Shown here one piece after another: positions 27,656-49,106 of a DNA stretch of 64,000 nt. A model generated the notes under the pieces. The model worked only from the letters and a program-made list of their open reading frames with translations, was not told where the DNA came from and made no database searches. The DNA comes from Candidatus Nomurabacteria bacterium (GTDB taxonomy: Bacteria > Patescibacteriota > Minisyncoccia > Phycocordibacterales > SBAW01), in contig CALRFF010000001.1 in the NCBI GenBank assembly GCA_943356495.1, positions 193,012 through 257,011 of the forward strand. Direction: 5' to 3'. A program made the translations under genes and the position numbers. Position 1 is the stretch's first letter. Every line of letters begins with the position of its first letter.

Positions 27656-27657
27656 AG

Positions 27658-28692
27658 TTAGAAGTTGAAGACCGGGCGGATAAGGCCGATTACCACAAGA
27701 CTATTAATAAAGTTAAACATGGCGAACAGGATGACCACAAGCCCGGCTGTTTTGAAGAACACACCTGTATGAGCACTCTTTTGAATACTGAACGCACTGA
27801 AGCTTATCAATGCCAATACAGGCAGGGTCCCCAGAGCAAACACGAACATGGTAAGCGCTCCGCTAAGGAAGCTGCCGGTAGAAAGGGTGTATATCTGCAT
27901 GGCCTGTGTAAAGCCGCACGGCAGAAAGAAGGTGGCTATACCCACCAAAAAGGGGGTCAGCGAATGATTGAGTTTTGAGGCTCGGAGCGCATGTCGAGAA
28001 AGAAACTTCGGCATAGAGGGTTGAAGTTTTTTTGACCAGTGGAATATATCCAAGAGGTTTATGCCCAAAATCAGCATAACCAGCGCGATACTTACCCCTA
28101 AAATAAAAGTCCCTGTGGTATTGAGTGTAAAGACCGCTCCTGCTGCGCCTATAAGCCCCCCTAAGACAAAAAATGAAACGAGACGCCCGATGTGGAATAG
28201 CAGCTGCGGTTTTACCTTGTCGCCCTCTTTGGCAAAAGTTACAGACATTGAAAGCACGAGGCCTCCCACGACCGCCATACACGTGGAAACCGAGGCGATA
28301 AGGCCAATCACAAAAGCTGTGCCATAGCCGACTTCGCCTGTGCCGACCAGATTCACTATGCCTAATTTCTGCAAAAGGATAAAGAGTGCCGCAAAACCGA
28401 GCGCAATAGGGACGGCGAGCTTAAAATCGCTCCACTTCTTTGTCGCGTGTGCCTGCTTTTCTGTCGATACGGTATAGCCGTGCGGGTGCAATACGGTGGT
28501 GAGAGCCGCCGCAACCGCGTCGGGTGTTTTGTCAGCAAAATCACCCTCAACTTCTATTGTGTGATGCTTGAGGTTTGATTTTGCACGAGTGATGAATGGG
28601 AGTTCCTGTGCCTCTGTTTCAGTAAGAAATGTGCAGGCATTGCAGTGCATGCCTTGAACGTGGAGGACATATTTTTGAGCTTGTGTAGTCAT
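27658..28692 (-). CDS. HMA-domain (MxCxxC) fused to DsbD_2/TauE-like permease, putative metal permease
   Basis: N-terminal GMHCNAC heavy-metal-associated fold. Polytopic membrane domain with TM cysteines. Confidence 0.55.
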   Translation of the reverse strand: MTTQAQKYVLHVQGMHCNACTFLTETEAQELPFITRAKSNLKHHTIEVEGDFADKTPDAVAAALTTVLHPHGYTVSTEKQAHATKKWSDFKLAVPIALGFAALFILLQKLGIVNLVGTGEVGYGTAFVIGLIASVSTCMAVVGGLVLSMSVTFAKEGDKVKPQLLFHIGRLVSFFVLGGLIGAAGAVFTLNTTGTFILGVSIALVMLILGINLLDIFHWSKKLQPSMPKFLSRHALRASKLNHSLTPFLVGIATFFLPCGFTQAMQIYTLSTGSFLSGALTMFVFALGTLPVLALISFSAFSIQKSAHTGVFFKTAGLVVILFAMFNFINSLVVIGLIRPVFNF

Positions 28693-28693
28693 A

Positions 28694-29098
28694 CTAATTG
28701 TAATTTTCCTTTTTAAGAGATACCCATTCTTTCCAAAAAAAGAAGGCCAGAATTGGAAACAGAAGGGCGGTATAAAGTCCTGGATAATATCCCCCGATCA
28801 TTATTGCTTTATATATGTGATGCAATTCATATATATAAATAAGGCCAGCAATCGCTAATACATTAAATTGCCATCTCTGACCCATCAATAAAAAAAAGGA
28901 AATTATTAAGAGCAGCCACAGCATTACCTGAAATGTTACGAAGGTCGCTCCGTGGTTTGAGAGTTCCGATAACAATCCAAAAATTGCCTGATCGTGAGAA
29001 TCAATATCATAAAAGTGAGTAACAAATTCTTCTATGCCATGAGCAATAAAGAGCGGTATCGAAAGACCGAATATGAGTTTTAATTTGTTTGAGATCAT
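28694..29098 (-). CDS. HXXEE domain membrane protein
   Basis: AHGIEEF (HxxEE) motif in TM1. Four TM helices. Confidence 0.5.
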   Translation of the reverse strand: MISNKLKLIFGLSIPLFIAHGIEEFVTHFYDIDSHDQAIFGLLSELSNHGATFVTFQVMLWLLLIISFFLLMGQRWQFNVLAIAGLIYIYELHHIYKAIMIGGYYPGLYTALLFPILAFFFWKEWVSLKKENYN

Positions 29099-29100
29099 GG

Positions 29101-31395
29101 CTATAATTTCATTGCCTTAATCCGTAACGAGTTGCCGACCACCGACACGCTGGAGAACGCCATGGCAAGCCCCGCGAACACAGGGTTAAGCAGCCAGCCA
29201 AAGACGGGGTAGAGCGCACCAGCGGCAAGTGGAATACCAATAATGTTGTAAAAGAAAGCCCAAAACAGATTTTGCTTAATCCCGCGCATAGTCATTTTGG
29301 AAAGCGTAATTGCTTTGACCAGTTTTGAAATATCGCCATTAAGAAGCGCGATACCGGCCGACTCAATAGCTACATCAGTGCCGGTCGCCATGGCAATGCC
29401 CACGTCGGCTTGAGCGAGAGCCGGAGCGTCATTTACTCCATCGCCTGCCATGGCAACTACGCGGCCCTCTGATTGCAGCTTTTTTATGGTGTTGAGCTTA
29501 TCCTCGGGCATGACTTCTGCTATCACTTCGTCAATCCCAACCTGTCGGGCGATATGCGCTGCGGTATTTTTGTCATCGCCAGAAAGCATAATCACCCTAA
29601 TACCCATATTGCGCAATTTTGAAACAGCTTCTTTCGCTTCCGGTTTTACCGCGTCAGCAACCATCACCACTCCAAGCAATTGGTCTTTGCTACTCAGAAA
29701 AACCGGGGTGCTTCCATTGCTCGTTTCTTTTTGAATAGCGTTGTGGTCAACCGAAAGTCTGAGATCAGTCATAAGCTTTACGTTGCCCGCAAAATACTCA
29801 CGGCCATCGATGGTGCCCTTTATGCCTTTGCCTTTGATAGCCCCAAAGGACTCAACTGCTGGGAGCGTGTATCCCTTACCTTTTGCATAGGAGACTACCG
29901 CATGAGCAATCGGATGTTCAGATTTATTTTCAAGAGCGGCGAGTATTGCCACAATTTCTTTATCGCTTAGCTCGGCATATTTTTTAATTGAGACCAATTC
30001 AGGCTTGCCTTTGGTGAGCGTGCCGGTTTTGTCTACCACGACCGTATCGACTTTATTAAGCCTCTCGAGTGTAGCAGCATCTTTAATAAGAATGCCTTCC
30101 TTGGCACCCTTGCCTACCCCTACGATAATTGCGGTCGGTGTCGCAAGGCCAAGTGCACACGGGCAGGCAATCACCAGAATGCCCACAAACGAGACAAGCC
30201 CCAGCGAAAGCGCCTGAGAAAAACCGAGATATTGCGTGCCTACAAGAAGCCAAGCACCTAAAGATACAAAAGCGATCACAAGTACCGCCGGCACGAAGAT
30301 ACTCGATATCTTATCCGCAAGTGCTTGAATAGGTGCTTTGCTGCCCTGCGCCTCCTCGACCATTGTAATGATATGAGCTAAAAGAGTTTCCGAACCCACC
30401 TTAGTTGCCTTAAATGTAAATGAGCCGCTGGTGTTGAGCGTACCTCCCACTACTAATTCCCCTTTGCTCTTTTGCACGGGCATGGCTTCACCCGTGATCA
30501 TCGATTCATCTACAAACGAAGTGCCCTCAACAATGACTCCATCGACCGGTATCTTGCCGGCTGGCTTGACCACTATTACATCGCCGTGGGCGAGCTGGCC
30601 GACTGGCACCTCTACTTCCTGCCCGTCGCGCAGCACGAGCGCCGTTTTTGCCTGAAGATTTAAGAGCTTCTCTATTGCATCTCCAGTCTTAACTTTTGCG
30701 CGAGCTTCCAAATATTTGCCCAGTGTAATAAATGCAATCACCACAATGGCTACGTCATAGTATGTGTGCTCGACGTTGATGAATTGTCGCAGAGACTCTT
30801 CAAACGCCATAACGATGGCACTGTACATAAACGCCACGGAGGTGCCTATCCCGATGAGCGTATCCATGTTTGCCTTGCCATACCGCAAAAAGGTATAGAT
30901 TCCTCTCAAATACGCCTTCCCTACAACAAACAGCATGTACGTAGCCATAATCGGGAGGATGTGATGAAAGAACTCGCTCCACACATAGGGGACTGCTGGT
31001 ACGACGCTAAACTGGGCCAAAATTTCCCATGCCATAACAAAGCCGCTGAAAATCGCTAACGGGATAGATACTGCGACCTTGGTACCCATATCGGCGATCT
31101 CCGCGAGTTTTTCCTTTTTTGATTGATTGAGACCAAGATGCGCTGCGTGCTCATCCGCTGACATACCCATCTCCTCAGCCGTAACCGGAACCTCTAATGA
31201 GTAGCCGAGCGGCTCTATATGCTTAGACAGGGCATGGGGGTTTGTTTGCGACGGGTCAAAGGAAACTTTAGCTTTCTCGGTGCCATAGTTAACTTCGGCC
31301 GATTGCACGCCCGCCACTTTCTTAAAAGTCTTCTCGATGATCGCCGAGCATGAAGCGCAATGCATGCCTTTTACTCTGTACGTTTGTGTATGCAT
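29101..31395 (-). CDS. copA: Copper-translocating P1B-type ATPase CopA
   Basis: HMA GMHCASC, CPC, DKTGTLT, GDGVNDAP and the HP motif. Start at MHTQTYRV. Confidence 0.9.
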   Translation of the reverse strand: MHTQTYRVKGMHCASCSAIIEKTFKKVAGVQSAEVNYGTEKAKVSFDPSQTNPHALSKHIEPLGYSLEVPVTAEEMGMSADEHAAHLGLNQSKKEKLAEIADMGTKVAVSIPLAIFSGFVMAWEILAQFSVVPAVPYVWSEFFHHILPIMATYMLFVVGKAYLRGIYTFLRYGKANMDTLIGIGTSVAFMYSAIVMAFEESLRQFINVEHTYYDVAIVVIAFITLGKYLEARAKVKTGDAIEKLLNLQAKTALVLRDGQEVEVPVGQLAHGDVIVVKPAGKIPVDGVIVEGTSFVDESMITGEAMPVQKSKGELVVGGTLNTSGSFTFKATKVGSETLLAHIITMVEEAQGSKAPIQALADKISSIFVPAVLVIAFVSLGAWLLVGTQYLGFSQALSLGLVSFVGILVIACPCALGLATPTAIIVGVGKGAKEGILIKDAATLERLNKVDTVVVDKTGTLTKGKPELVSIKKYAELSDKEIVAILAALENKSEHPIAHAVVSYAKGKGYTLPAVESFGAIKGKGIKGTIDGREYFAGNVKLMTDLRLSVDHNAIQKETSNGSTPVFLSSKDQLLGVVMVADAVKPEAKEAVSKLRNMGIRVIMLSGDDKNTAAHIARQVGIDEVIAEVMPEDKLNTIKKLQSEGRVVAMAGDGVNDAPALAQADVGIAMATGTDVAIESAGIALLNGDISKLVKAITLSKMTMRGIKQNLFWAFFYNIIGIPLAAGALYPVFGWLLNPVFAGLAMAFSSVSVVGNSLRIKAMKL

Positions 31396-31396
31396 A

Positions 31397-31663
31397 TTAT
31401 TTTCTCTTGAGCTTATAGACCTTGAGGATCTCCGCTTTCGCCCTACTCGTTTGTCCCGATTTAACCTGATTGAGAATGCAGCTTCCAAGATGGTTTTCGA
31501 GTAGCAAATCCTCGACGTTAGACAAACCCTGCTTAACTGCCGAGGTCTGCGTAATCACATCAATGCAGTAGGTATCACTATCTACCATCTTTTGAAGTCC
31601 TCGAACTTGCCCCTCAATCAACTTGAGGCGACGAACAACTTTAGATTTATTTTTATCGTCCAT
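31397..31663 (-). CDS. csoR: CsoR/RcnR family metal-sensing repressor
   Basis: DUF156 fold with Cys/His ligands (C...H...C). Immediately upstream of copA. Confidence 0.8.
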   Translation of the reverse strand: MDDKNKSKVVRRLKLIEGQVRGLQKMVDSDTYCIDVITQTSAVKQGLSNVEDLLLENHLGSCILNQVKSGQTSRAKAEILKVYKLKRK

Positions 31664-31693
31664 GTATTTCATATACATGCATCATACACTATG

Positions 31694-31710
31694 ATACCCC
31701 CTAGGGGTAT
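31694..31710. promoter_or_regulatory. Candidate CsoR operator (ATACCCC-cta-GGGGTAT)
   Basis: GC-tract inverted repeat of the TACCC-Nn-GGGTA CsoR-box type, 30-45 nt upstream of the csoR start. Confidence 0.5.
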
Positions 31711-31830
31711 ACCTTAAAATAAACTCTCCTCAGCTGCGGTCGCTGGACGGGTTTGGAACTGTTGATTGGAAGGCACTTGAGCGGGAAATGCAGTGGCTTA
31801 TGGTAGCGATGCCGAGGTTAGGAATAAACC

Positions 31831-32259
31831 TCAGCCGATGAATTTGTCTCTCTTTCGACCGATTATGTATGGGAACAGAATGGCAAACAAGGTCCAAGCG
31901 GATAGCAGACCGATCACCCCGTAGACCTGAGCGTTCGTACCTTGAACCATCAACTTGAGCCCCTCCCACATAAATATCACATAGACGCTGCTCGCTACAT
32001 AAAATAGATACTCCTCTACAGGTAACCCAAGAAAACGAAGCCCTATAGTTTGGCGCCGGTTAAACTGCCAGAGCCACACACGATCTTTCTTGCCGTGCCG
32101 GGTAGCCCATACATCCCAAATGCTCCCGATGATGGTAACCAGCACAATAAACGGCACGAGTGCTTGCAGGTCGATAAATCCAGAGAGGTAGAAGCCAGCG
32201 ACAATCGTTGGGGCGCAAAAGACAAAAAAGAGTGTCAGTAAGTAGTTATACTTTCGCAT
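31831..32259 (-). CDS. Lycopene cyclase domain-containing membrane protein
   Basis: PxEE(Y/F) motif (LGLPVEEYLFY) and W-rich TM pattern of the CrtYcd-type domain. No carotenoid context nearby. Confidence 0.4.
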   Translation of the reverse strand: MRKYNYLLTLFFVFCAPTIVAGFYLSGFIDLQALVPFIVLVTIIGSIWDVWATRHGKKDRVWLWQFNRRQTIGLRFLGLPVEEYLFYVASSVYVIFMWEGLKLMVQGTNAQVYGVIGLLSAWTLFAILFPYIIGRKRDKFIG

Positions 32260-32302
32260 CTACCAAATTCTACAACGGAAAACGGGACGGCCATGGGGCT
32301 GT

Positions 32303-32650
32303 CTATTTTTTAAGGGTCAAAGCGATAAGACCAAACTTTTTAATTTTCTCGGTGTAGTTAGGGAATGAGCCCCATGCATCCCTGCCATCTTGCCCGGTCT
32401 TCCAGGTAGGGTTGATTTGCTGGGGCTGGTACTTTTCGTAAATAGCGTCGATCGAGGGGAACTTCTCAACTTTAATTACCTCTTTAGTGCAGGTGTCGTT
32501 ACCGCAGGAAAAGACGATAGTATCTCCCGCCACGATGCCAGCATATTTATCGGTCGCGGCGCGGGTCTCCAGCGTCTTGCCGCCATTACAAACAAGGTCA
32601 AAGGTGTCCCGGTTTACCTCGCGAAACTCGAGCGTATGAGTCTTAGGCAT
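32303..32650 (-). CDS. ASCH (PUA-like) domain protein
   Basis: About 115 aa beta-barrel-like sequence consistent with ASCH. Overlaps the CYTH gene by 8 nt. Confidence 0.5.
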   Translation of the reverse strand: MPKTHTLEFREVNRDTFDLVCNGGKTLETRAATDKYAGIVAGDTIVFSCGNDTCTKEVIKVEKFPSIDAIYEKYQPQQINPTWKTGQDGRDAWGSFPNYTEKIKKFGLIALTLKK

Positions 32651-33245
32651 TTTTGGGTATCCGCTTTTTCTCGAGCCAGTCGGGCGTATCAGAAAAATCT
32701 ATATTGGGGCAGCGGTCGATCTCCTCGTTTTCGACGGCAAAGTATTTTGCGTAGATGCGAGCTACACCGCCAAACATCGCCTTATCCCAATCCATGCCCA
32801 ATAGCCGGGCCATCTCTTTTACATCGTTCTCGGTCGGGGCCTCTATCTCAAGAAAGGTTGGTATCCACGGCCAGGTATCTATCATGAGTTCTGTGTCGCC
32901 AAACCTCCACAGTTCTCGCTTTTTGACTTGGGTCGATTTTACCGCCATGCCAATAGCCAAGAGCATCTGCTCGGCCGCGTCAAAGGAATCCAACTTTAAA
33001 GTAATTTCTTTCATGCCCTCGACGCCCTCCTTTTCCCACTTTTTAAGTGTCAGGGTTACCTCGCCATTCTCCTCTCGGAGTCGAAGCCAAGAGGCCTGCT
33101 GATCGAGTTTGAAATCTGGGTAGTCAAAGACTTTTTGTCGAGCCAAGACCTCGGGATACACCAAAGTAGCTCCATACTGTTGGAGGTGCGACCGAACGAC
33201 ATCCGGGTCAATATCGAGGAATTTTGCTTCGATTTCTGTCTTCAT
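32643..33245 (-). CDS. CYTH domain protein (triphosphate tunnel metalloenzyme / class IV adenylyl cyclase-like)
   Basis: N-terminal EIEAKF (ExExK) signature plus downstream acidic/basic tunnel residues. Confidence 0.65.
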   Translation of the reverse strand: MKTEIEAKFLDIDPDVVRSHLQQYGATLVYPEVLARQKVFDYPDFKLDQQASWLRLREENGEVTLTLKKWEKEGVEGMKEITLKLDSFDAAEQMLLAIGMAVKSTQVKKRELWRFGDTELMIDTWPWIPTFLEIEAPTENDVKEMARLLGMDWDKAMFGGVARIYAKYFAVENEEIDRCPNIDFSDTPDWLEKKRIPKNA

Positions 33246-33284
33246 GTGAGATCAATTATAGTACGCATTATATAGAAAAAACAA

Positions 33285-33331
33285 AAGCCACCAACTGAAT
33301 GATGGCTTTCGCCTACTTCAGTTGATGGCTT
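33285..33331 (-). terminator. Rho-independent terminator (15-bp imperfect inverted repeat plus T-run on minus strand)
   Basis: AAGCCACCAACTGAA ... TTCAGTTGATGGCTT. On the minus strand it is followed by TTGTTTTTTCTATA. Sits at the 3' end of the three-gene operon. Confidence 0.4.
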
Positions 33332-33336
33332 GTAGA

Positions 33337-33984
33337 TCAGCTTTGCTCCGCGAGTTCTTGCAGGAGTTCGACCGTCTTGATGTGGTCTTCGAGGCAGTGG
33401 GTGTCTTCCATCGCCCCGTTGTTGTTGAACTCCGCGTTATCCAATGCCCCGTAGAGAGCAGTCCGCACCGCGTAGGCGCGGCTACCCTGTTTGAGCCCTG
33501 CGCGGATGAGTATGTAGGTGGCGATGTCATTGAGGATATGCTTCATCACCCACCCACTCATCTCCTCCCGCTTGAGTTCGAGCACCATCTGCAGGAGCTT
33601 GAGCCGCTCCGCCACTGGGGCTTGTTCGAGGGCTTTCTCAAAGAAGTCTGGCATATCGCACCAGTTCACCTCGTTGCCGATGATCTGCCGGACATTCTTC
33701 CGCAGCATAGTCTTCAGCGTCAGGGCAAGGTCGCCCGTCAGATGATGAATATGCTGCAGAATTGCGAGTGCCGTCTCGGGCGACAAGTAGGTAAAGACCT
33801 CCTTCTCGCCGACCTCGAACTCGCCTTCGACCGGCACATTGTCCAAGAACCAAACGAGGTTCGGGACGGTGCAATCCGCATGAGCGAACGCCTTTGGCAG
33901 GAATTCCTCATCGCGGCCGTGGAAGTACAGTGGCTTCTGGATGTCATTCCAAAAGCCGCCGTGAGCATGGACATCTCGAAACAT
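33337..33984 (-). CDS. Hypothetical protein (216 aa; N-terminal DVHAHGG metal-hydrolase-like motif)
   Basis: Long ORF with protein-like composition. The antisense ORF at 33322-34017 was judged spurious. Confidence 0.45.
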   Translation of the reverse strand: MFRDVHAHGGFWNDIQKPLYFHGRDEEFLPKAFAHADCTVPNLVWFLDNVPVEGEFEVGEKEVFTYLSPETALAILQHIHHLTGDLALTLKTMLRKNVRQIIGNEVNWCDMPDFFEKALEQAPVAERLKLLQMVLELKREEMSGWVMKHILNDIATYILIRAGLKQGSRAYAVRTALYGALDNAEFNNNGAMEDTHCLEDHIKTVELLQELAEQS

Positions 33985-34118
33985 GATAGTAGCCCCTCCA
34001 TGGGCTGTTGGAGTTAAAAAAGAACTTACTCGATGAGCCAGCAACCGAAGTTGTGGGCTCAATAGAGTGGCGCGATACCGTCGCGCCAAGCCGGAAGCAT
34101 TTTAAGTTTGCTCAAACT

Positions 34119-34487
34119 TTACGCGGCTGCGGCACTATTAACCACCTCGAAATCCTCGAATGAGAATTTGGTCCGCTTTGCCTTCAAACGGGAACCTTCG
34201 AAGTAGGGTGAGATGTACCAGATGTCAGAGCCGTAGACGTGGCGACGCGACATATCTGCGATGCTTTCGCTCTCGTAGATACGCTCATCGTGGAAGGATA
34301 CCTGCGTCACACCATCCCAACGAGGGTCGGGAGCGACGCGGATGCGGTAGTTACGAGGATTCTTTGTCTTCACCGAGTTTGGCGCGAACTTGCCAACCAA
34401 GTGCCAGACATCTCGCCATAGTCCTGTGCCTTTTCGCACCTCCTTCACTTCGAAGGTGCGGGTATCGTAGAGTTTGCGATTTCCCAT
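34119..34487 (-). CDS. Hypothetical protein (123 aa)
   Basis: ORF with an internal Met start. No recognised domain. Confidence 0.4.
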   Translation of the reverse strand: MGNRKLYDTRTFEVKEVRKGTGLWRDVWHLVGKFAPNSVKTKNPRNYRIRVAPDPRWDGVTQVSFHDERIYESESIADMSRRHVYGSDIWYISPYFEGSRLKAKRTKFSFEDFEVVNSAAAA

Positions 34488-34609
34488 CGCTGCCTCCTTG
34501 TGAATGTGCAGTTTACTCGCAAAGACTTCCACCCTTACGGGTCGTTGTCTTTGATAAGGGGCGCATTTAGTAACCGTGCGCCCAAGTCGGTTGGTCATTT
34601 GCGACCAAA

Positions 34610-34924
34610 TTAGTCGGCCAAAGTCAGCCAGCCCTTCCGGTCAGCGGTACTGAAGTACCCCTTGAACGGATGGCGATTGACCTTGCGAGCGGCCCCGCCG
34701 TGTTCCTTGCCACCAACCACGAAGACATCGTGGAGGTAGCCAGAAACATTCCAGGACTCGCCGGACCCGTCTTCCTCAGAAACCCCCGTGATGGTCGCGG
34801 TGTACTCGATCGTGCCGTGTTCCGGCTTGAACGAGACAGTGGGTTTCTGCGGCTTACGCGTGAACAGCGAAGCCATGAGGTCGAACTTGGACGGGCCGTT
34901 ATTGATGGTGATGATGGCGCTCAT
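34610..34924 (-). CDS. Hypothetical protein (105 aa)
   Basis: First gene of the three-gene operon. No recognised domain. Confidence 0.4.
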   Translation of the reverse strand: MSAIITINNGPSKFDLMASLFTRKPQKPTVSFKPEHGTIEYTATITGVSEEDGSGESWNVSGYLHDVFVVGGKEHGGAARKVNRHPFKGYFSTADRKGWLTLAD

Positions 34925-35112
34925 ACGAGCCTCCATGAAGAGCAATTCCTTTGAAGAGGTAGGAACCAAACCCCGTTATCTCTTGCGAGACCACCAATCC
35001 ATCCGGACTGGGATTACCCAGCAGTATATACCTAAACAACGCTTTTGTCAAGCCGTCAAGGGCTTGGTAAATAAGGACTTTTTGGCTCTGCAAGAGTAAA
35101 CTAAAGTACACT

Positions 35113-36333
35113 ATGGACCCCCTCCAGATACTCGAGCGGTACTTCAATACCTTCATTACCCAGGACGACCCGAAGCACTTTTTTATCGGGATGGCCGACT
35201 ACCTAAACTATGGCGATGGTGTGCCTGAGTATGACTGGATAACGAGCGAAATATCCGCTATGCCCGCAGCCCTTTTAAGTAAGTTTGAGGAGCAGAAAAA
35301 GGTGGCATTCGAAAGGGTTAGAGAAAAACATAAAGAGATAACAACAGCTATTAGAGAGAAAAATATCAACCTTCCTGCAGTAGAGAACGCGTTGGTGGAG
35401 TGTAAGCAAATCTTTGACGGACACATCTATAGCGAAACACCTGGGGCTTATATGTTGCATCTGCGGCTCTACGACATCATCCAGGCTCTTTATCAAACGC
35501 CAGAGTACCGCGAGTTTGCGTCGCAATACATCACCTTCTCAGAGCGCGACAAGACACAACCGCGGCAGTACTTGCCGATCAAAGAATTAGACGAATTGAT
35601 GAAAACAAAAGCCGAGGTTGAGCGTGGTGCCGAAGATGCTATATGGGGTATCCAAGCGCATATTTACAACCTCCGTGAGGTAATAAACCGAGGAAGAGAG
35701 ATTGGCGAAGGTATCACCGAGCGTATACAGAAACGGGAACCGGGTGCGACGCTCGATATGCTGAACTTTGGGGTTCTTATGGGCGAGTGGATGAAAATCG
35801 AAGAAGGCCGACCTGAACGCGATCCTGTTTTCTTTGTCCCTAAAAAGGTACGCCCACAGGTGCAGCGATTTCATATGTATGTTGTAGCGCACTTTACAGA
35901 AGCGCGAGCGGCAATCAATGCCGCTAAACCCATAGAAGCTCTAAAAGAATCGGTCGAGATAAAACCTGAGGTCGATAGCACTGTCGCGAAAAAACCGATC
36001 CTACTCGAGGAAAAAGGTAAGGGCTATATCAAATTCTATAAAGAGGGGCCGCGTATTCTTATCGGCAAAGTTAGCACAAAAAAGCATAAGCTGATTAAAG
36101 CACTCATAGATCCTTTGGGTACGGCAAAAAATGTAAACGTGGTATTTGACGCTATCAAAGACCGGAAGGCTGCGAGCGACATCCGACTGAAGGATACTTA
36201 TACGGCAGCAAACCGCGAGCGTGAGCTGATCGACTTCACGATGAAAGAGCTACAGAAGATAAAGGGGCTCAAGGGACGCATCTCACTTACCTACCACCAC
36301 AACAACAGCACCGTATTGCTCAATCTTGGATAA
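35113..36333 (+). CDS. Hypothetical protein (406 aa), element cargo
   Basis: Low-GC ORF. No recognisable domain. Confidence 0.5.
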   Translation: MDPLQILERYFNTFITQDDPKHFFIGMADYLNYGDGVPEYDWITSEISAMPAALLSKFEEQKKVAFERVREKHKEITTAIREKNINLPAVENALVECKQIFDGHIYSETPGAYMLHLRLYDIIQALYQTPEYREFASQYITFSERDKTQPRQYLPIKELDELMKTKAEVERGAEDAIWGIQAHIYNLREVINRGREIGEGITERIQKREPGATLDMLNFGVLMGEWMKIEEGRPERDPVFFVPKKVRPQVQRFHMYVVAHFTEARAAINAAKPIEALKESVEIKPEVDSTVAKKPILLEEKGKGYIKFYKEGPRILIGKVSTKKHKLIKALIDPLGTAKNVNVVFDAIKDRKAASDIRLKDTYTAANRERELIDFTMKELQKIKGLKGRISLTYHHNNSTVLLNLG

Positions 36334-36630
36334 CGAGAGGCGTTTTTTATCATAGGCCTGCCGCAGTACAGAGGGTTTTTGTAGTACCCTTTTGTTTTTT
36401 GTGTAAGTGGGCCTAAAAACCCTCTCAATCCCTCTGGCTCCTTTGAGCCCAGAGGGATCTTCATATTTGTTATGTGCCAGAGGATAAGCAAAAACCTAAA
36501 AAGCCGCGGCGCTCGCAGGAGGCGCAGGTCGACCCGGCTGCAACCGATAACCTCATCGGGTTCTTTGCCCAATTGCTTGAGATAGATAAGCGTCTACATC
36601 CCGAGGATTACCGAGGGGCTCAAAACCACC

Positions 36631-37752
36631 ATGCTTGATACTGTCGTACTCAATATCCCGAAGGAGCAGATACGCGAGGTTGCCGATGGTACGGCGCAGC
36701 GTTGGGACTTGCAGAGCAAAACCAGCAACTACCGTAAGCTCACAAAGAACCCACCTCGCGGCATACGCAACGATGTATACCGGCCACGGCTTACCGGCAT
36801 GGAGCGCAGTGTGGGCCACGGGCAGAAGGTATCGTTCGTCAGGGTTGAGTTCTCTGTCCCGAAGCTCCTGTTTGGCAACAACCTTGAGGAGCTGGCCGAC
36901 AAGGACTTTGAGCCGGTCGTGGAGTTGTTGTACCAGCGCCTGCTCGACTATGGCCTTATCGTCAACAAACGCGATATAAAAAACGCCGCCGTTACGACCT
37001 TCCACCCCTCTAAAAACATAGTGCTGTCGGGCGGCTGGACTGCCTCTGGTATCTCGCAAGAGCTATCAAAAATCAACCTCAATAAAAAGTTTGACCTGCA
37101 GAAAACGAGCTTCCGCAACAATGGCTGTAGCTTACAAGCGCACACGCTGGCTCACTCAGTTGTGGTATACGACAAAGTCGCAGATCTGGCACAGTCAAAA
37201 AAGAAAGCCATCGATAAAGACCAAGTACCTCGGCAGATGGCACTCTTTCAGAAGCTAAAGACGGACCAGCCATTGCTTGAGATACTGCGGCTCGAGATAC
37301 GCCTCACACAGAAGCAAAAAATCAATGCCGTACTCAAAGAGCTTGGCTTGCCTATCAACCCTACCTTTGAGCAGATATTCAAAAAAGATGTATGCCAAAA
37401 AATCGTACAGTCGTATTGGGACACAATCATCGAGGGCGAGAACTTGTTTCTGTTTAGCATCGAGAGTAGCCCTAAGAACCTGCTCAAGCGTGTCCTGCGG
37501 CAGCACCCCAAGATGCAGGCCAAGAACGCTGTCTATTTGGTTGGGCTTAACGCGCTGTGTAATGACGAGGGCGGCATACGGGAGCTTCGGGCTATATTGA
37601 CGAAACGGCAGTCACCACGAGGCTGGTATCGCATCACGGACGGCATCAGCCTGCTCAACGAGGGGCGCTCCGACCGGCACTTGCACGGCTGGGTCCGGCA
37701 GATCCGTGACGCGATTAAGAATTTTACGTCATATAGGATACGTGGGCCGTAG
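36631..37752 (+). CDS. Putative rolling-circle replication initiator (Rep_trans-like)
   Basis: VVYDK motif resembling the conserved R(I/V)YDK block of Rep_trans proteins, and an alternating basic/acidic region (LRLEIRL). Inverted-repeat-rich region upstream. Confidence 0.35.
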   Translation: MLDTVVLNIPKEQIREVADGTAQRWDLQSKTSNYRKLTKNPPRGIRNDVYRPRLTGMERSVGHGQKVSFVRVEFSVPKLLFGNNLEELADKDFEPVVELLYQRLLDYGLIVNKRDIKNAAVTTFHPSKNIVLSGGWTASGISQELSKINLNKKFDLQKTSFRNNGCSLQAHTLAHSVVVYDKVADLAQSKKKAIDKDQVPRQMALFQKLKTDQPLLEILRLEIRLTQKQKINAVLKELGLPINPTFEQIFKKDVCQKIVQSYWDTIIEGENLFLFSIESSPKNLLKRVLRQHPKMQAKNAVYLVGLNALCNDEGGIRELRAILTKRQSPRGWYRITDGISLLNEGRSDRHLHGWVRQIRDAIKNFTSYRIRGP

Positions 37753-37789
37753 GCGAAGCCGGGCAGATTTAAGAGCTAAAAAAATAACT

Positions 37790-37921
37790 ATGAAAACAAG
37801 TGAACAAAAGTTTGTGGAGCAGATACAGAAAGGGATTTCGCAGTACTATAGGCAGATGCTCTCGCGCCGTATCAAGCGCGGCATAGCGGCAAAAAGGGCT
37901 AAAAAGCTGCCCACAGCCTAA
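37790..37921 (+). CDS. Small basic hypothetical protein (43 aa)
   Basis: Short ORF between the Rep-like and Xis-like genes. Weak ribosome-binding site. Confidence 0.25.
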   Translation: MKTSEQKFVEQIQKGISQYYRQMLSRRIKRGIAAKRAKKLPTA

Positions 37922-37961
37922 AGTTGCTATGTAAACCATTGTAAAGTAATATAAAAACTAT

Positions 37962-38141
37962 ATGCCACAGGCAAAAGAATTCTACCGGGCTGAGGACTTG
38001 GCCAAAAAGCTCGACATAAACATCATGACCATCTACCGCTACATCAAGGCGGGCAAACTCAAGGCGCACAAAATAGGCAAGGAGTTCCGTATTGACCAGG
38101 CAGAGTTTACCCGCTTCCTCAAATCGACCCGCACGAAATAA
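37962..38141 (+). CDS. Excisionase/MerR-like HTH DNA-binding protein (Xis family)
   Basis: 59 aa, below the ORF-track cutoff. HTH_17 pattern (LAKKLDINIMTIYRYIKAGKLKAHKIGKEFRI). Confidence 0.55.
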   Translation: MPQAKEFYRAEDLAKKLDINIMTIYRYIKAGKLKAHKIGKEFRIDQAEFTRFLKSTRTK

Positions 38142-38143
38142 AT

Positions 38144-39124
38144 ATGGCTCAAAAAATATTAAACAAAAACCTAAATAAGGCGAGCAAAGAAAAGAAAGAC
38201 GAGTTTTATACTCAGATTATCGATATTGAGAAAGAACTGAAGCATTACAGAGATCAGTTTCGGGGCAAGGTGGTTTTCTGCAACTGCGACGACCCGAAAG
38301 AAAGCAACTTCGTAAAATATTTCAGCAGGAGTTTTGAGCACTTGAGGTTAAAGAAATTGATCGCAACACACTATAAAGACGCAAACCTATTTACTGACGA
38401 GTCGCCATACAAACTGGAATACACAGGCGATAAAAATGGTAATCGTATGCCTGACCCAAGTGAGTTTATGACCGAGATGATTGGTACTGGCGATTTTCGT
38501 AGTGAGGAATGTGTAGAGCTGCTAAAAGAGGCAGATATTGTCATAACGAACCCGCCGTTTTCGCTCTTTCGTGAGTATGTTGCGCAGCTGATGGAACACA
38601 ACAAGAAATTTCTAATTCTTGGTAATCAAAATGCCATAATCTACAAAGAAATTTTTAAGTTTGTAAAAGAAAATAATATGTGGCTTGGGTATGACAATGG
38701 TGGCACAAAATGGTTTCAAGTTCCTACAGACTACGACATACCGACTGAGTCCAGAATAAAAGTTGAAAACGGCATTAAGTTTTTCAGCATGGGGAGCATA
38801 ATGTGGTTTACAAACCTCGACACCACAAAGCGGCACGAGGAACTGATTTTGTATAAGAAATATACACCAGAAGAATATCCAAAATATGACAATTATGATG
38901 CGATTGAAGTATCAAAATTTCTTGATATTCCCATGGACTATGCTGGGGTAATGGGCGTACCGATTACTTTTCTCGACAGATATAATCCTGAACAATTTGA
39001 AATTGTAGGATCAAACCGGGGTGTGGACCAAGACCCGAATGGAGTCTACGGGCGAGGCTCGTTCTTAAATGGTAAGGAAACCTTCAAACGTTTGTTTATA
39101 AAAAATAAGAAGGTAAAAAAATAA
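38144..39124 (+). CDS. N6-adenine DNA methyltransferase, EcoRI-methylase-like family
   Basis: NPPF catalytic motif (ITNPPFSL) and upstream FCNCDDP AdoMet region. 326 aa, the same length class as M.EcoRI. Confidence 0.75.
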   Translation: MAQKILNKNLNKASKEKKDEFYTQIIDIEKELKHYRDQFRGKVVFCNCDDPKESNFVKYFSRSFEHLRLKKLIATHYKDANLFTDESPYKLEYTGDKNGNRMPDPSEFMTEMIGTGDFRSEECVELLKEADIVITNPPFSLFREYVAQLMEHNKKFLILGNQNAIIYKEIFKFVKENNMWLGYDNGGTKWFQVPTDYDIPTESRIKVENGIKFFSMGSIMWFTNLDTTKRHEELILYKKYTPEEYPKYDNYDAIEVSKFLDIPMDYAGVMGVPITFLDRYNPEQFEIVGSNRGVDQDPNGVYGRGSFLNGKETFKRLFIKNKKVKK

Positions 39125-39125
39125 T

Positions 39126-40217
39126 ATGAAAATTGATCTACATAAAATTCCTGTACGCAAAGTAGTCCTTGGATACAAAGACAGTGCTGAAGAAGGCGTG
39201 GTGGCTTATGGCGGCAAGCTTGATATTCGCCCAAAGTATCAGCGAGAGTTTGTTTACAAAGGCCATCAGCGTGATGCCGTCATTGAGACAGTTAAAAATG
39301 ACTTTCCTCTCAACGTAATGTACTGGGTAAAAAAAGATGATGGTAATTACGAGGTTTTGGACGGACAACAGCGAACTATTAGCATCGGGCAGTATGTAAA
39401 TGGAGACTTTTCACTTAATGATCGGTTTTTCCATAACTTGACCGACGAGGAACAAAAACAGATTTTAGATTATGAACTCATGATCTATTTCTGCGAAGGC
39501 ACAGATAAAGAGCGGCTGGACTGGTTTAGGATTATTAATATTGCAGGAGAAAAACTCACCGAACAAGAGCTTCGCAACGCGGTATATACCGGCCCGTGGC
39601 TTTCTGATGCAAAACTTAAATTCAGCAAAACAAATTGCGCGTCGTATCTTTTAGCAAATGATGGCGGCCAATTAGTGAGCGGCTCGCCAATTCGACAGGA
39701 GTATCTTGAGACCACACTTTCGTGGATTAACGACGCCAAGATTGAAGATTATATGGCTAAGCATCAGCATGACAAAAATGCTGAGAAGTTGTGGCAATAC
39801 TTTCGTGATGTCATCGCGTGGGTACGAAAGACATTTACGAATTACCGTAAAGAAATGGCGCACGTAAATTGGGGTGAACTATACAACCAATTTAAGGAGA
39901 AAAAACTGAGCCCTATAAAACTGGAGGCCGAGATTAAAAAGTTAATGCAGGACGAGGATGTTACAAAAAAATCTGGTGTTTATCCGTATGTTTTGACGAG
40001 ACAAGAGAAGTATCTATCTATCCGTACTTTTACTGACAAAATGAAGCGCGAAGCGTATGAGAGACAAAATGGTGTTTGCCCTTTCTGTAAGAAAAGATAC
40101 GACATTTCTGAAATGGAAGCAGATCATATTACACCTTGGCACGAAGGGGGCAAAACAATAGCTAAAAATTGTCAGATGCTCTGCAAACAAGATAACCGGA
40201 CAAAGTCGGGAAAATAG
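39126..40217 (+). CDS. DUF262 (ParB-like nuclease/NTPase) plus C-terminal HNH endonuclease fusion protein
   Basis: N-terminal DGQQR motif of DUF262. C-terminal HNH motif (CPFC...ADHITPWHEGG...NCQMLC). Confidence 0.8.
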   Translation: MKIDLHKIPVRKVVLGYKDSAEEGVVAYGGKLDIRPKYQREFVYKGHQRDAVIETVKNDFPLNVMYWVKKDDGNYEVLDGQQRTISIGQYVNGDFSLNDRFFHNLTDEEQKQILDYELMIYFCEGTDKERLDWFRIINIAGEKLTEQELRNAVYTGPWLSDAKLKFSKTNCASYLLANDGGQLVSGSPIRQEYLETTLSWINDAKIEDYMAKHQHDKNAEKLWQYFRDVIAWVRKTFTNYRKEMAHVNWGELYNQFKEKKLSPIKLEAEIKKLMQDEDVTKKSGVYPYVLTRQEKYLSIRTFTDKMKREAYERQNGVCPFCKKRYDISEMEADHITPWHEGGKTIAKNCQMLCKQDNRTKSGK

Positions 40218-40222
40218 CCCAC

Positions 40223-41749
40223 ATGAAAGCCATCATCCTTGCCAGAGTTTCGACCGAAGAGCAGCGGGACGCGGGTAATTCGCTCCCTGCTCAGATCGAG
40301 CGCTTGCAGGACTACTGCAGACGGAAGGGGCTGGATGTAATAGAAAAGTTTAGCTTCGACGAGAGCGCCTACAAAACAAAGCGCGATGAGTTTGACGATA
40401 TTCTCAAAAGCATCGAGCAAAACAAAGACAAGGTAGCGGTATGCTTCGATAAGGTAGACCGCTTTTCGCGCAATGTGTTTGATAAACGTGTTGCAATGCT
40501 CTATGACCTCGCGATGGCAGACAAGATCGAGTTGCATTTCGCCTCAGATAACCTCGTCATCACCTCAAGCATATCTGCCGTTGAGAAGTTCCACTTTGGA
40601 ATCAACCTTGGGCTTGCAAAGTACTACTCGGACGCAATCAGTGACAACACACGCCGGGCCTTTGAAAATAAGCGGCGCAATGGCGAATGGACCGGCAAAG
40701 CGCCTATCGGATACAAAAACATTCAGGATGACAAAGGAAATAAGGACATCGTACTTGATGAGGAAAGGGCGCATCTCGTGCGCCGTATCTTTGAGCTGTA
40801 CGCGACCGGCAACTACTCCATCAAGAAAGTGCGGGACCAGATTACAAAAGACGGCCTCTTGAGCACTCAGGAAGGAAAGCCGCTCGCATTAAGCATGATC
40901 GAGTACATCCTTAAAAACCCCTTCTACCATGGTATGGCTCGATCTACACGCGAGACATACGAACACAAGTACTTGCCGCTCATCACAAAGCAACTTTTTG
41001 ACCAATGCCAGCAGGTTCTACAGAGCTGGGGCAAAAAGCAGTTTCAATACGCGGCCAAGCCGTACATCTTCCGCGGCTTGTTGCGCTGCGCTCGCTGTGG
41101 CTGCTCTATGAGCCCTGAAACGGCAAAGGGTAAGTATGTCTACTACGCCTGTTCTAACGGCAAAAAGGATATATGCGACACGAAGGTCTATGTGGCTGAG
41201 AAGGACCTCCTAAAGCCCATATACGCCATCCTGGGCGCTTTGGACAAGCTCCCGCAAGAGAAGATAGACGAGGTAGTCGAGGGGCTTAAAAAGTCGCACG
41301 AGTCAAAACAGGCGTACCACGGCAATGCTCTTACTGGGTTACGCAAAGAGTACGACATGCTCCAACAAAGGTTGGACAAAATGTACCTGGACCATCTCGA
41401 CGGGCGTATTACTCAGGATGCGTATGACAAATATCTGCAACAGTTTAAAGGACGACAGCAGAACATCAACCTACTCCTTAGCGAGCATACTGATGCAGAC
41501 GAGAGCTATATAATCGCGGCTACTACAGTGTTAAATCTGGCTAAGAGGGCTTTGAGCTTGTTTGAAAGTTCCGAAGTCTTGGAAAAGCGGGCGCTTTTGA
41601 ACTTTTTACTTCAGAACTCAACCGTGGACGGCAAAAAGCCTTGCTACGCCTTGCGTTCTCCTTTTGACGCTATACTCGCTTTCGCTAAACGACCAACTGG
41701 GCTGCCAGACTTGGATTCGAACCAAGATACACTGCTCCAGAGGCAGTAG
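40223..41749 (+). CDS. Large serine recombinase (integrase)
   Basis: N-terminal resolvase catalytic domain (ILARVSTEEQ...SLPAQ), recombinase and zinc-ribbon (CxxC...CxxC) domains. 3' end runs into tRNA-Gln. Confidence 0.85.
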   Translation: MKAIILARVSTEEQRDAGNSLPAQIERLQDYCRRKGLDVIEKFSFDESAYKTKRDEFDDILKSIEQNKDKVAVCFDKVDRFSRNVFDKRVAMLYDLAMADKIELHFASDNLVITSSISAVEKFHFGINLGLAKYYSDAISDNTRRAFENKRRNGEWTGKAPIGYKNIQDDKGNKDIVLDEERAHLVRRIFELYATGNYSIKKVRDQITKDGLLSTQEGKPLALSMIEYILKNPFYHGMARSTRETYEHKYLPLITKQLFDQCQQVLQSWGKKQFQYAAKPYIFRGLLRCARCGCSMSPETAKGKYVYYACSNGKKDICDTKVYVAEKDLLKPIYAILGALDKLPQEKIDEVVEGLKKSHESKQAYHGNALTGLRKEYDMLQQRLDKMYLDHLDGRITQDAYDKYLQQFKGRQQNINLLLSEHTDADESYIIAATTVLNLAKRALSLFESSEVLEKRALLNFLLQNSTVDGKKPCYALRSPFDAILAFAKRPTGLPDLDSNQDTLLQRQ

Positions 41750-41772
41750 TCCTACCATTAGACGATCTGGCA
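41702..41772 (-). tRNA. tRNA-Gln (anticodon CTG)
   Basis: Manually folded cloverleaf with 7-bp acceptor stem (U1-A72), anticodon loop CTCTGGA, T-loop TTCGAAT and discriminator G. Confidence 0.8.
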
Positions 41773-41795
41773 ATACACAGGAACGATATCAAACA

Positions 41796-46908: not shown

Positions 46909-46984
46909 TGGAGCCAGAGGTCGGGATTGAACCGACGACCCCTTCATTACGAATGAAGTGCTCTACCAACTGAGCTACTCTGGC
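46909..46984 (-). tRNA. tRNA-Thr (anticodon CGT), CCA encoded
   Basis: Manual cloverleaf fold. Anticodon loop TTCGTAA, T-loop TTCAATC. Confidence 0.8.
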
Positions 46985-46985
46985 G

Positions 46986-47058
46986 AGCCGAAGGCCGGAA
47001 TCGAACCGGCGACCTACTCCTTACCATGGAGTTGCTCTACCATCTGAGCTACTTCGGC
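46986..47058 (-). tRNA. tRNA-Thr (anticodon GGT)
   Basis: Manual cloverleaf fold. Anticodon loop ATGGTAA, T-loop TTCGATT. Confidence 0.75.
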
Positions 47059-47159
47059 GATGTAAGGAACAGTAGCGCATGTGCGTCTAATTTTCAATGG
47101 ATTTTCATGTACAACCGACTTTATGGGTTCTTCATCTATGGCGCGGTAAGGTGGTTGGT

Positions 47160-48404
47160 ATGACTCAGCCGCACCGCGCACTTTTGGCAACTCTTAGTGT
47201 CAGCGCATGGTGTGCATTTGTGCTAGCGGCATTTTTACTCCCCCGCGGAGAAGGCGTCGGACATGCCGCATTGGTGCTGGCGCTCCTTGGCGCCGCGGCG
47301 GCGGCTTTGGCGTACACCTATGCGCACTGGACGCCGGCCGCAGTACCCGAGCGCGACGAAACACTGCACCCTGAGATCGACACGGTAATTACCGACGGAC
47401 ATGTAGTGCCCGAAAGTATCCTCGCGGGGAGTGCGCCCTTGATTGCTGTGGTGCGCGAGGGCGAGCTACTCCACCCCGCCTTTGTCGATTCTTTAGCGCC
47501 GTACTTTACTGAGCGCTCGCTGGGGTTTGTACAAGCCGCCACCCGGTACGACGGCGTGGGGCGTGTGGCAGACGCATTCCGTATACAGCAAACACTGCTG
47601 CAGAACTTTGAACACGCTAAAAACTCACTTAACGCGGTAATGCTGCGCGGCAGCGGCGCGCTTATTGCGCGCGAGGCGCTCGAGCAGGCATACCGCCCCG
47701 GTATAGGGTTTGCCGAGTTGGGCTTGCGCATGCAGGCACTGGGCTATACGTCGCACGCTGAAACGCGCGCGCTAACACTTGCGTGGGCGCCGGAAACACT
47801 CGAGGAGTACTGGCCGCACCTGCTGCGCAACGCCCGACGCTCTTATACACTGCTGTACCCCGCACTGCGCACCAAAGGACTTTCCTTTGCGACACGCCTG
47901 CAGTATGCGGCTATACCAAGCGCATATACCGCGGCGGTTGCCGGCACACTGGCGCTGGTACTAACGCCGCCGGCACTGGTGCTGCGCGGCGTCGGGCCGG
48001 TCATACTGTCGGGTGCCGCACTGCCCGCACTTCTGGTGTTTGTAAGCGTATGTTTGATTGCCGCGCGTATGGTGGAAAAAATTGCCGCCGTGCCCGCAGC
48101 GCCGGTTGTGAGCTTAGTGGTGTCGGGCACTGCTCTTGCCGGGTATCGTCTTGGCTTGCTGTTCGGAAAAAAAATAAAAGTACGGGCGACCCCGCTGTTG
48201 CAAGCGGGGGCGGCGCAGTATGCAAACGCGCGGCGTGTGCTGCTTTCGGCAGCAAAAAAGCCCCAGAGGGGGCAATTTTTGCTCGCTGCGCGAGAGACGG
48301 GACTTGAACCCGCAACCTCCGCCGTGACAGGGCGGCGCTCTAACCAGTTGAGCTACTCCCGCGTGTCGGCGGAAGGACTTGCACCTTCGACCTTGGGTTT
48401 ATGA
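47160..48404 (+). CDS. Hypothetical Ala/Leu-rich membrane protein (possible degenerate glycosyltransferase-like)
   Basis: Long ORF with TM segments at both ends. Its 3' end overlaps two antisense tRNAs, so it may be spurious. Confidence 0.3.
   Translation: MTQPHRALLATLSVSAWCAFVLAAFLLPRGEGVGHAALVLALLGAAAAALAYTYAHWTPAAVPERDETLHPEIDTVITDGHVVPESILAGSAPLIAVVREGELLHPAFVDSLAPYFTERSLGFVQAATRYDGVGRVADAFRIQQTLLQNFEHAKNSLNAVMLRGSGALIAREALEQAYRPGIGFAELGLRMQALGYTSHAETRALTLAWAPETLEEYWPHLLRNARRSYTLLYPALRTKGLSFATRLQYAAIPSAYTAAVAGTLALVLTPPALVLRGVGPVILSGAALPALLVFVSVCLIAARMVEKIAAVPAAPVVSLVVSGTALAGYRLGLLFGKKIKVRATPLLQAGAAQYANARRVLLSAAKKPQRGQFLLAARETGLEPATSAVTGRRSNQLSYSRVSAEGLAPSTLGL
48290..48363 (-). tRNA. tRNA-Asp (anticodon GTC)
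   Basis: Manual cloverleaf fold. Anticodon loop CTGTCAC, discriminator G. Confidence 0.8.
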
Positions 48405-48438
48405 GTCCCATGCTCTAACTACCTGAGCTACGCCGACG
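48365..48438 (-). tRNA. tRNA-Met (anticodon CAT, elongator-type)
   Basis: Anticodon loop CTCATAA. 7-bp acceptor stem. One A-A mismatch closes the anticodon stem. Confidence 0.7.
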
Positions 48439-48457
48439 GTACGCAAAAAGTACCACG

Positions 48458-49066: not shown

Positions 49067-49106
49067 GCTTGTATAGTATCACTTTTTCTGCTATTATGGT
49101 GTCAAT

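Follow-up and report, generated by a model that had tools for sequence, protein, structure and literature searches.

tRNA genes are regarded as the territory of tyrosine integrases. The element pSAM2 carries a repSA-xis-int operon, in which a tyrosine integrase works with a long identity segment, together with a Tra transfer gene. SSV-type archaeal integrases are tyrosine recombinases with a tRNA target and with attP in int, the gene being split into two large parts. Serine recombinases are found in the Ralstonia filamentous phage phiRSM1, a virion-forming inovirus with a G2P-type initiator and a small resolvase-like enzyme, and in actinomycete integrative and conjugative elements (AICEs) of Mycobacterium, a type of element that carries FtsK-like Tra proteins. 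Ghinet et al. describe tRNA integration by serine recombinases as rare and cite phiRSM1 (tRNA-Ser 3' end) and eight Mycobacterium AICEs (tRNA-Leu) (PMC3218068). The tools that detect Islander-type islands look for a displaced piece of the tRNA and exclude serine integrases by design (PMC4383910). Here we analyse a 64,000-nt stretch of Candidatus Nomurabacteria DNA (GenBank assembly GCA_943356495.1, contig CALRFF010000001.1, positions 193,012 to 257,011; hereafter the window, whose own coordinates are used throughout), which belongs to a Patescibacteria (Parcubacteria-type) genome with a GC content of 55.5%. Our results suggest, with a probability of about 0.88, that positions 31733-41705 are an integrative plasmid-like element that a large serine recombinase (LSR) has placed at the very 3' end of the tRNA-Gln(CTG) gene. 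An integrative element at this tRNA end had been proposed from the letters of the window (hereafter the original prediction), and a conspecific empty site now supports it.

The nature and boundaries of the element are assigned with high confidence. Contigs from other samples that encode an identical PGA_cap protein display the gene order PGA_cap, tRNA-Gln, CsoR, Cu-ATPase ... HlyD, with the site empty. The occupied site belongs to sample ERZ27280310, and the empty one to ERZ27280297, ERZ27280327 and ERR3719144. When positions 31738-41705 are removed, the window aligns with one of these contigs (L181) at 100.000% over 12,032 bp without gaps, and the 55-mer predicted as attB is found in L181, L186 and L187, which are three independent conspecific assemblies from three other samples. 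The pentamer GCTGC lies at both ends, as the attL core (31733-31737) and the attR core (41701-41705), and the latter is the complement of tRNA nucleotides 74-70 (C74, G73, A72, C71, G70); deleting 31738-41705 yields the natural empty site. This exact empty site, together with the integrase open reading frame (ORF) that is rebuilt when the two ends of the element are joined (see below), therefore defines an element of 9,968 bp, 31733-41705, with a 5-bp overlap. To the left of the attL core lies the host B arm, which is AT-rich and adjoins a CsoR operator palindrome. The tRNA-Gln of L181 is identical to the occupied-site copy, the mature sequence being unchanged by integration. The empty tRNA-Gln site that the original prediction had advised looking for in related genomes was thus found exactly, in conspecific contigs, and att sites were found as well; the absence of both had been named as evidence against the element, and the outcome favours mobility.

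The position of the junction within the tRNA gene agrees with this delimitation. Uninfected tRNA-Gln genes from ten related genomes agree at their 3' ends only as far as ...GCAGC and then diverge, whereas infected ones (window, L084, L086) run on identically as GCAGCCCAGTTGGT. Since this extension is shared only by infected copies, the junction lies at the acceptor end, at the discriminator and C74. A crossover inside the T stem, considered because the tRNA-coded integrase tails of the window and of protein P0001 diverge after 'DSNQ', was rejected, because the acceptor stem changes together with the 5' strand of the host and the uninfected tRNA of L012 is identical to the infected one of L086 up to GCAGCCC. 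The comparison of L012 with L086/L087, intended to delimit an element of 84% identity, was also abandoned, as their left flank is not common.

The recombinase gene (40223-41749, + strand) encodes 508 aa in its integrated form, with matches to the Pfam families Resolvase (1.8e-21, residues 3-156), Recombinase (5.5e-15) and Zn_ribbon_recom (9e-12). Residues R8, S10, R80 and R83 are invariant in 37 homologues, as are C289, C292 and C310. On the opposite strand lies tRNA-Gln(CTG) (41702-41772, - strand; Rfam 59.7 bits; ARAGORN limits 41698-41773), into which the integrase reads for 48 nt, its final 16 codons, stop included, being inside the tRNA; domain searches, ARAGORN and Rfam all agree with the original prediction here. 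Residues 1-494 are native, and the last 14 are encoded by the antisense strand of tRNA-Gln. In the features tested the enzyme is a large serine integrase, for which attP x attB catalysis and excision dependent on a recombination directionality factor (RDF) are predicted from sequence. It is the only recombinase of the element, none of whose ORFs contains a Phage_integrase (tyrosine recombinase) domain. A 27-nt imperfect inverted repeat (40292-40318 / 41743-41769), 74% complementary and with an exact 11-mer, connects the 5' part of int with the 5' half of tRNA-Gln and is probably due to chance (E ~2 for the 11-mer).

The far end of the element carries an integrase tail, not a tRNA repeat. Directly after the second GCTGC copy, and in frame with int, we found a detached natural C-terminal integrase tail (31734-31841, + strand; LRSLDGFGTVDWKALEREMQWLMVAMPRLGINLSR, followed by a stop), which holds the P' arm of attP. 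Many full-length homologues do not enter a tRNA and end in a conserved tail L(P/R)xLDxFRTxxW.... With 41705 joined to 31738, the ORF becomes 528 aa long and aligns from one end to the other with such a homologue (P0008; 1-524 vs 1-522), whereas the integrated 508-aa form aligns to the same protein only as far as residue 499. The tail segment is 97.5% identical to its counterpart in L084, and its open frame of 35 codons is kept. Therefore, attP lies within the 3' end of int, and integration swaps the 34-aa tail for a tRNA-antisense tail. The P arm corresponds to the last ~30 nt before the core, and the P' arm to the first ~30 nt of the 34-codon tail (LRSLDGFGTVDW...).

No tRNA fragment marks the far side. 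The original prediction had found no direct repeat of the tRNA 3' half, and our blastn-short and repeat searches of the window likewise retrieved nothing better than chance 11-mers; the 15-25 bp repeat of the tRNA 3' end that it nevertheless expected does not apply: just 5 bp overlap, and the integrase tail serves as the marker of the far side. A long tRNA repeat is a signature of tyrosine integrases, and its lack is to be expected of a serine integrase, which exchanges strands over 2 bp. As an end marker, the tRNA 3'-end repeat was accordingly discarded, with only chance matches in the window and one real repeat among 29 related loci, the other 28 loci tested having no displaced tRNA fragment. 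The sole locus with a long repeat is L175, where 24 nt of the tRNA-Asn 3' end occur at 2409-2432 and 11499-11522, ~200 nt to the left of its detached tail (2614); the repeat may stem from an earlier, second junction or from duplication of the end of the tRNA.

The left boundary at 31733 differs from the start at 35100 given in the original prediction, under which the element would be a 6.7-kb segment (35100-41772) and the genes to its left would belong to the host. Gene orientation does flip at ~35.0-35.1 kb, and the GC content of 33-35 kb is near that of the host (53-55%), but the empty-site contigs lack all of 31738-41705, which refutes this delimitation. Moreover, positions 31733-35882 are 83-100% identical at the DNA level to the L084 element, compared with ~74% for host genes, and the detached tail is located at 31734 and not near 35100, so that the shorter segment is hardly credible. 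Base composition also departs from the earlier description, which gave a host GC of ~60% falling to 33-40% over 35.1-40.2 kb, with an integrase gene of host-like GC. Against the 55.5% of the host, we measured an average of 45.4% for 35100-40200 and 49.4% for the integrase gene, an intermediate value that is not host-like. The sole stretch near 40% is the methyltransferase/nuclease pair described below (39.9% as a whole, with lowest values of 36% and 34% for window sizes of 500 and 200 nt, respectively).

The low-GC anomaly begins further to the left, at about 26.3 kb (26.25 kb), and raises the opposite question of whether the whole block from 26.3 to 41.7 kb, including a copper cluster, could be one island at tRNA-Gln. 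Besides the fall in GC at 26.25 kb, a distant relative (L011) has HlyD ~0.9 kb from tRNA-Gln, leaving 15.4 kb extra here, and L011 was once taken as the empty site of such a 15.4-kb island, until the conspecific empty site superseded it. Element-free conspecifics keep the copper cluster beside tRNA-Gln, and the cluster has neither a recombinase nor an att-like tail at its left edge, which makes the larger island highly unlikely. The copper-resistance block itself (26280-31732, GC 46.4%) lies between HlyD and the element and comprises genes for DUF6629, cupredoxin-like, HMA+DsbD_2, HXXEE, Cu P-type ATPase and CsoR proteins, with a CsoR-operator-like palindrome (ATACCCCCTAGGGGTAT) at about 31693-31709, beside the host arm of attL. 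It is present in both occupied and empty strains and missing from the distant relative L011, and clusters resembling it also occur in L053 and L031. The block looks like an older, separate acquisition adjoining the same tRNA-Gln, or a variable host region.

Around the tRNA gene, the synteny RF2-FtsE-FtsX-CTP synthase-PGA_cap-tRNA-Gln is kept across many Parcubacteria metagenome-assembled genomes. About 60 nt past uninfected tRNA-Gln genes, GGATTCGAA(CC) motifs (the reverse complement of the T loop) were observed (L005 at ~12930, L006 at ~1325); ARAGORN detects no tRNA at these sites in L005 and L006, and the motifs may be tRNA fragments or scars of past integrations. Further along the window, a cluster of five tRNAs (Thr-CGT, Thr-GGT, Asp, Met, Met) is located at 46909-49179, two of which are covered by a long mechanical ORF (47097-48404).

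The integrase belongs to a large family: of 8,000 candidates scored, 2,431 are homologues at E<=1e-10, and those with a named source are mostly from Patescibacteria. Our set of metagenome loci comprises 80 loci whose integrases share 48-79% identity with that of the window, many of the contigs ending where int ends. In 32 of the 80, the 3' end of int overlaps or just precedes a tRNA encoded on the other strand, namely Asn(GTT) in 28, Gln(CTG) in two, and His and Trp in one each. More distantly, the integrase overlaps tRNA-Gln(TTG) in two IMG/VR contigs (33% identity) and tRNA-Pro in a third, while among human-gut scaffolds (33-35% identity) one integrase reads into tRNA-Leu and another abuts tRNA-Glu. 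At least 14 loci contain the detached tail on the strand of int, at a distance of 6.1-10.4 kb upstream, and in those it always stands directly after a run of 5-9 nt common to the int/tRNA junction. The minimal shared run is GCTCC in tRNA-Asn elements and GCTGC in tRNA-Gln elements, both being the complement of tRNA nucleotides 74-70. An integrase 79% identical to that of the window (P0004, in L101) uses tRNA-Asn (core GCTCC), and those 84-97% identical (L084, L086) use tRNA-Gln (core GCTGC); the target tRNA has therefore been switched between close relatives, with one core base changed.

The alignment of these sites reveals a common geometry. The consensus of P' is GCTCC-N7-GGAC-N3-TTCAGAAC, that of B' is GCTCC-N7-GGA-TTCGAAC, and the reverse complement of P reads GGAGC-N6-GGAC.... 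The inner GGA(C) motif is equidistant from the core in P' and B', whereas the outer motif (T)TC(A)GAAC is 5 nt further from the core in P' (GAAC at +19 in the B' consensus vs +24 in the P' consensus). The Listeria integrase has been shown to have such a 5-bp shift of the outer (zinc ribbon domain, ZD) motif between attP and attB, which was suggested to underlie the discrimination of sites (PMC3783163). The sites thus combine the features of LSR attachment sites: the overlap is very short, a long direct repeat is missing, attL and attR are hybrids, and the outer motif is shifted by 5 bp. The acceptor and T arms of the tRNA would form the B' half-site of attB, and the B arm, which is host DNA 3' of the tRNA, shows no conservation among loci. 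In P and P' the GGAC motifs form a dyad centred on core positions 3-4, from which we tentatively infer a crossover dinucleotide TC in the Asn elements and TG here (tRNA nucleotides 72-71).

Several loci present a different far end. In L084 (1-256), L085 (3-329) and the starts of L148, L153, L129 and L149, a further integrase-like ORF runs with its 3' end straight into the detached tail, and these far ends are attP-like hybrids (P_a-core-P'_b) in place of host DNA. This suggests tandem arrays, formed as one element inserts into the attR of another already in place, and such arrays would fit a dispensable B arm.

Among 18 elements that could be delimited, Rep, a helix-turn-helix (HTH) protein and Int form a conserved core in that order, the integrase being present in all 18. 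The first core gene (36631-37752, + strand) encodes a putative rolling-circle replication initiator of 373 aa (G2P/Phage_CRI-like), a role suggested by the Pfam matches of its homologues and by its motifs, and to which we give moderate confidence. It has 445 homologues and occurs in 16 of the 18 elements. The Pfam family Phage_CRI (G2P) is matched by 5 of 42 homologues (best 7.5e-7), two database homologues carry a precomputed PF05144 match, and Y180-D181-K182 and E217/R220/E222/R224 (YDK, ExxRxExR) are invariant in 42 sequences, where they may have a catalytic role. The structural model (predicted local distance difference test, pLDDT, 84) matches three viral proteins of BFVD at E ~1e-9. The Rep_trans-like initiator of the original prediction therefore survives as a plausible initiator, though not under the Rep_trans label, which none of the 42 homologues matches. 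The HTH_17 protein (37962-38141, + strand, 59 aa; Pfam HTH_17 2e-11) had been described as Xis/MerR-like and is indeed excisionase-like, with a match to PHROG 66 (3.3e-9), annotated as 'excisionase and transcriptional regulator'. A small HTH lies between Rep and int in 42 loci, and it is tentatively proposed as a candidate RDF or regulator. Between Rep and the HTH, a small basic ORF (37706-37921, + strand; 71 aa from GTG, 43 aa from an internal ATG at 37790) resembles the resolvase E-helix, matching only positions 95-142 of Pfam Resolvase (E 3e-5). It is kept only in L084/L085, the Rep-HTH gap in the wider family being ~140 nt shorter, and may be either a leftover or a small peptide that interacts with the integrase.

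Two adjacent genes fill the slot that separates xis from int. The first (38144-39124, + strand) encodes a type II DNA adenine methyltransferase of the EcoRI-methylase family (326 aa; Pfam EcoRI_methylase 4.3e-127; PADLOC MTase_II 1.8e-119 over 1-324 of 326 aa), and the second (39126-40217, + strand) a type II restriction endonuclease (363 aa; GmrSD_N/DUF262 4.6e-17 and HNH 5.3e-10 in Pfam; PADLOC REase_II 8.9e-137 over 1-363 of 363 aa). Together they are a predicted type II restriction-modification (R-M) pair. The L084 element lacks exactly the stretch corresponding to 38142-40221, which is the R-M pair, and is otherwise collinear; therefore, the pair is a cassette in the cargo slot between xis and int. 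The original prediction had assigned this methyltransferase-nuclease pair to the element, which is borne out in that it is cargo, and had correctly located the ORFs of 406, 373, 71, 59, 326 and 363 aa. In another family element (L141, 3130-5395), the same methyltransferase and GmrSD_N/HNH pair (51% and 78% aa identity) is found in opposite orientation and at a different position, and the R-M cassette seems to move between family elements.

The remaining genes are less easily classified. The 406-aa protein (35113-36333, + strand) consists of a helical N-terminal domain and a C-terminal domain that is weakly winged-helix-like (model pLDDT 85; against the PhoB/PhoP DNA-binding domain, probability 0.84-0.93 with weak E values of 0.2-0.5). 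It has 15 homologues and no Pfam, PHROG or PADLOC match, and relatives occur in 8 of the 18 delimited elements. On the left, all on the - strand, are located a lycopene-cyclase-like membrane protein (31831-32259, 142 aa; Pfam Lycopene_cyc 6.7e-7; 94% aa identity in the L084 element), an ASCH-like protein (32303-32650, 115 aa; Pfam ASCH 5e-4, PHROG 19935 2.9e-12) and a CYTH-domain protein (32643-33245, 200 aa; Pfam CYTH 4.2e-16), which we consider accessory. These are followed by three ORFs with no family match, one of up to 250 aa (33337-34089; 215 aa as called in public contigs), one of 159 aa (34119-34598) and one of 119 aa (34610-34969; 99% aa identity in L084/L085).

The G2P-like initiator raises the possibility of a prophage, for instance of a filamentous (inovirus-like) phage. 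The Rep family matches Phage_CRI and the three viral BFVD models, a size of 6-11 kb would fit, phiRSM1 enters tRNA-Ser by a serine recombinase (PMC3218068), and there are reports of inoviruses from the Candidate Phyla Radiation (PMC6813254). Against this, neither the Zot/pI ATPase nor coat or other virion genes were found in the ORFs of the element with Pfam, PHROGs and PADLOC. The other recurrent genes of the 18 delimited elements are R-M parts (N6_N4 methyltransferases, ResIII helicases, a type IIG-like fusion), with no virion, Zot or conjugation genes seen among them. A single-sequence search of 2.9 million IMG/VR contigs retrieved no close relatives, an alignment search giving only <=34% identity, and a tblastn search of 50,697 phage records gave no match to Rep. 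We consider a prophage very unlikely.

Taken as an integrative plasmid-like element, the locus suggests the following cycle. A free circle would be copied by the 373-aa G2P-like initiator through rolling-circle replication, and the 528-aa integrase would recombine the attP in its own gene with the tRNA 3' end, within GCTGC (tRNA 74-70). Integration leaves the mature tRNA intact and splits the int ORF, stranding the natural tail 10 kb off at attL, and the integrated copy encodes the 508-aa protein with its tRNA-encoded tail. The integrase and the Xis-like HTH may then excise the element, restoring the 528-aa int ORF and the tRNA flank. The xis-int slot would serve as the cargo site, where the R-M pair could defend the host and stabilise the element.

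Recent mobility is indicated by the comparison with L084, where the same element is found at tRNA-Gln (Int 97% aa and 92% nt identity; Rep 96% aa) and the flanking host genes share only ~74% DNA identity, that is, a near-identical element in a divergent host. The mosaic or long-resident element suggested in the original prediction is not supported in view of this copy, of presence and absence between 100% identical flanks, and of the intermediate GC of the integrase gene. We find it very unlikely that the element is a fixed inactive remnant, in which the int-tRNA overlap would be an accident of an open frame running on. Such an accident could account for a 14-residue tRNA-encoded tail without selected function of its own and for relatives that overlap different tRNAs, with stops at varying places, and no circular form was found. 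However, the element is present or absent between identical flanks, all core ORFs are intact with invariant catalytic residues, the tail keeps its 35-codon open frame at 97.5% identity to L084, and a 97%-identical integrase resides in a divergent host.

Several observations must nevertheless be counted against a mobile, self-replicating plasmid-like element. The rebuilt 528-aa attP-form protein is not in a collection of 15 billion proteins, neither a circular excised form nor an attP junction of exactly this element came to light, and related contigs show no terminal overlaps indicative of circular forms. No FtsK_SpoIIIE or other transfer domain was detected in the ORFs of the element, which encodes no transfer machinery. 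The Rep role is indirect, the 373-aa window protein having no Pfam match (E<=0.01) and no NCBIfam or PDB sequence match, and a Foldseek search of its model against PDB retrieved nothing. Finally, the presence/absence polymorphism represents either integration or excision, of an element that may or may not still be active.

A further-reaching reading would see in these integrases an undescribed, very large, Patescibacteria-dominant clade that uses the tRNA acceptor and T arm as a single conserved half-site and has directionality wired into the topology of int. The conserved tail LDxFRTxxW... would then exist only on the free element, and the chromosomal protein would differ in function, being for example excision-prone or integration-dead; as the B arm is dispensable, attR could be a new target, which would explain the tandem arrays. 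We regard this reading as unlikely, and a regulatory role of the tail swap in particular is proposed with low confidence.

For the integrative plasmid-like element favoured here, the wider significance lies first in the family. A serine integrase family of >2,400 members targets the last nucleotides of tRNA-Asn, -Gln, -His, -Trp, -Leu and -Pro and leaves no displaced fragment, and repeat-based island finders would miss these elements. They appear to be a main carrier of R-M genes in Patescibacteria, a huge uncultivated group with poorly known mobile elements. With its empty site, this natural pair now has its attP, attB, attL and attR sequences resolved to 5 bp, and these can serve as reagents for testing a serine integrase whose type of target is universal and highly conserved. 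The system also makes it possible to ask if the directionality of a serine integrase is influenced by its C-terminal tail. A literature search of incomplete coverage retrieved no account of this integrase family, of a serine integrase gene that contains attP, or of patescibacterial tRNA genes as sites for serine integrases.

Among described systems, the phage large serine integrases (A118/U153, Bxb1, phiC31 and SPbeta type) have the same three domains and the catalytic Ser and Arg, and they share the short overlap, the lack of a long repeat, an attP that is an imperfect inverted repeat, and the 5-bp shift of the outer motif (PMC3783163). In contrast to them, the present integrase is only 23-28% identical to annotated phage integrases, its target is a tRNA gene 3' end, its attP lies inside the int ORF so that integration alters the C-terminus, the B arm is not conserved, and the carrier is a small Rep-encoding element rather than a tailed phage. 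Islander-type islands with tyrosine integrases resemble it in the use of the tRNA 3' end, in int lying beside a preserved tRNA, in defence cargo and in tandem arrays, but here the recombinase is of the serine type, with an overlap of 5 bp and neither a displaced tRNA fragment nor a 15-45 bp repeat. With phiRSM1 and the Mycobacterium AICEs, whose recombinases were compared by description, it shares serine-recombinase integration into tRNA genes, although it has no virion genes or Tra. The order of rolling-circle initiator, excisionase-like HTH, integrase and tRNA att site is that of pSAM2; the differences are the LSR, the cargo slot between xis and int and the lack of a transfer gene. As in SSV-type integrases, attP lies within the int coding sequence, the gene is partitioned on integration and the target is a tRNA, but only the last 34 codons are exchanged here, the catalytic and DNA-binding domains staying intact.

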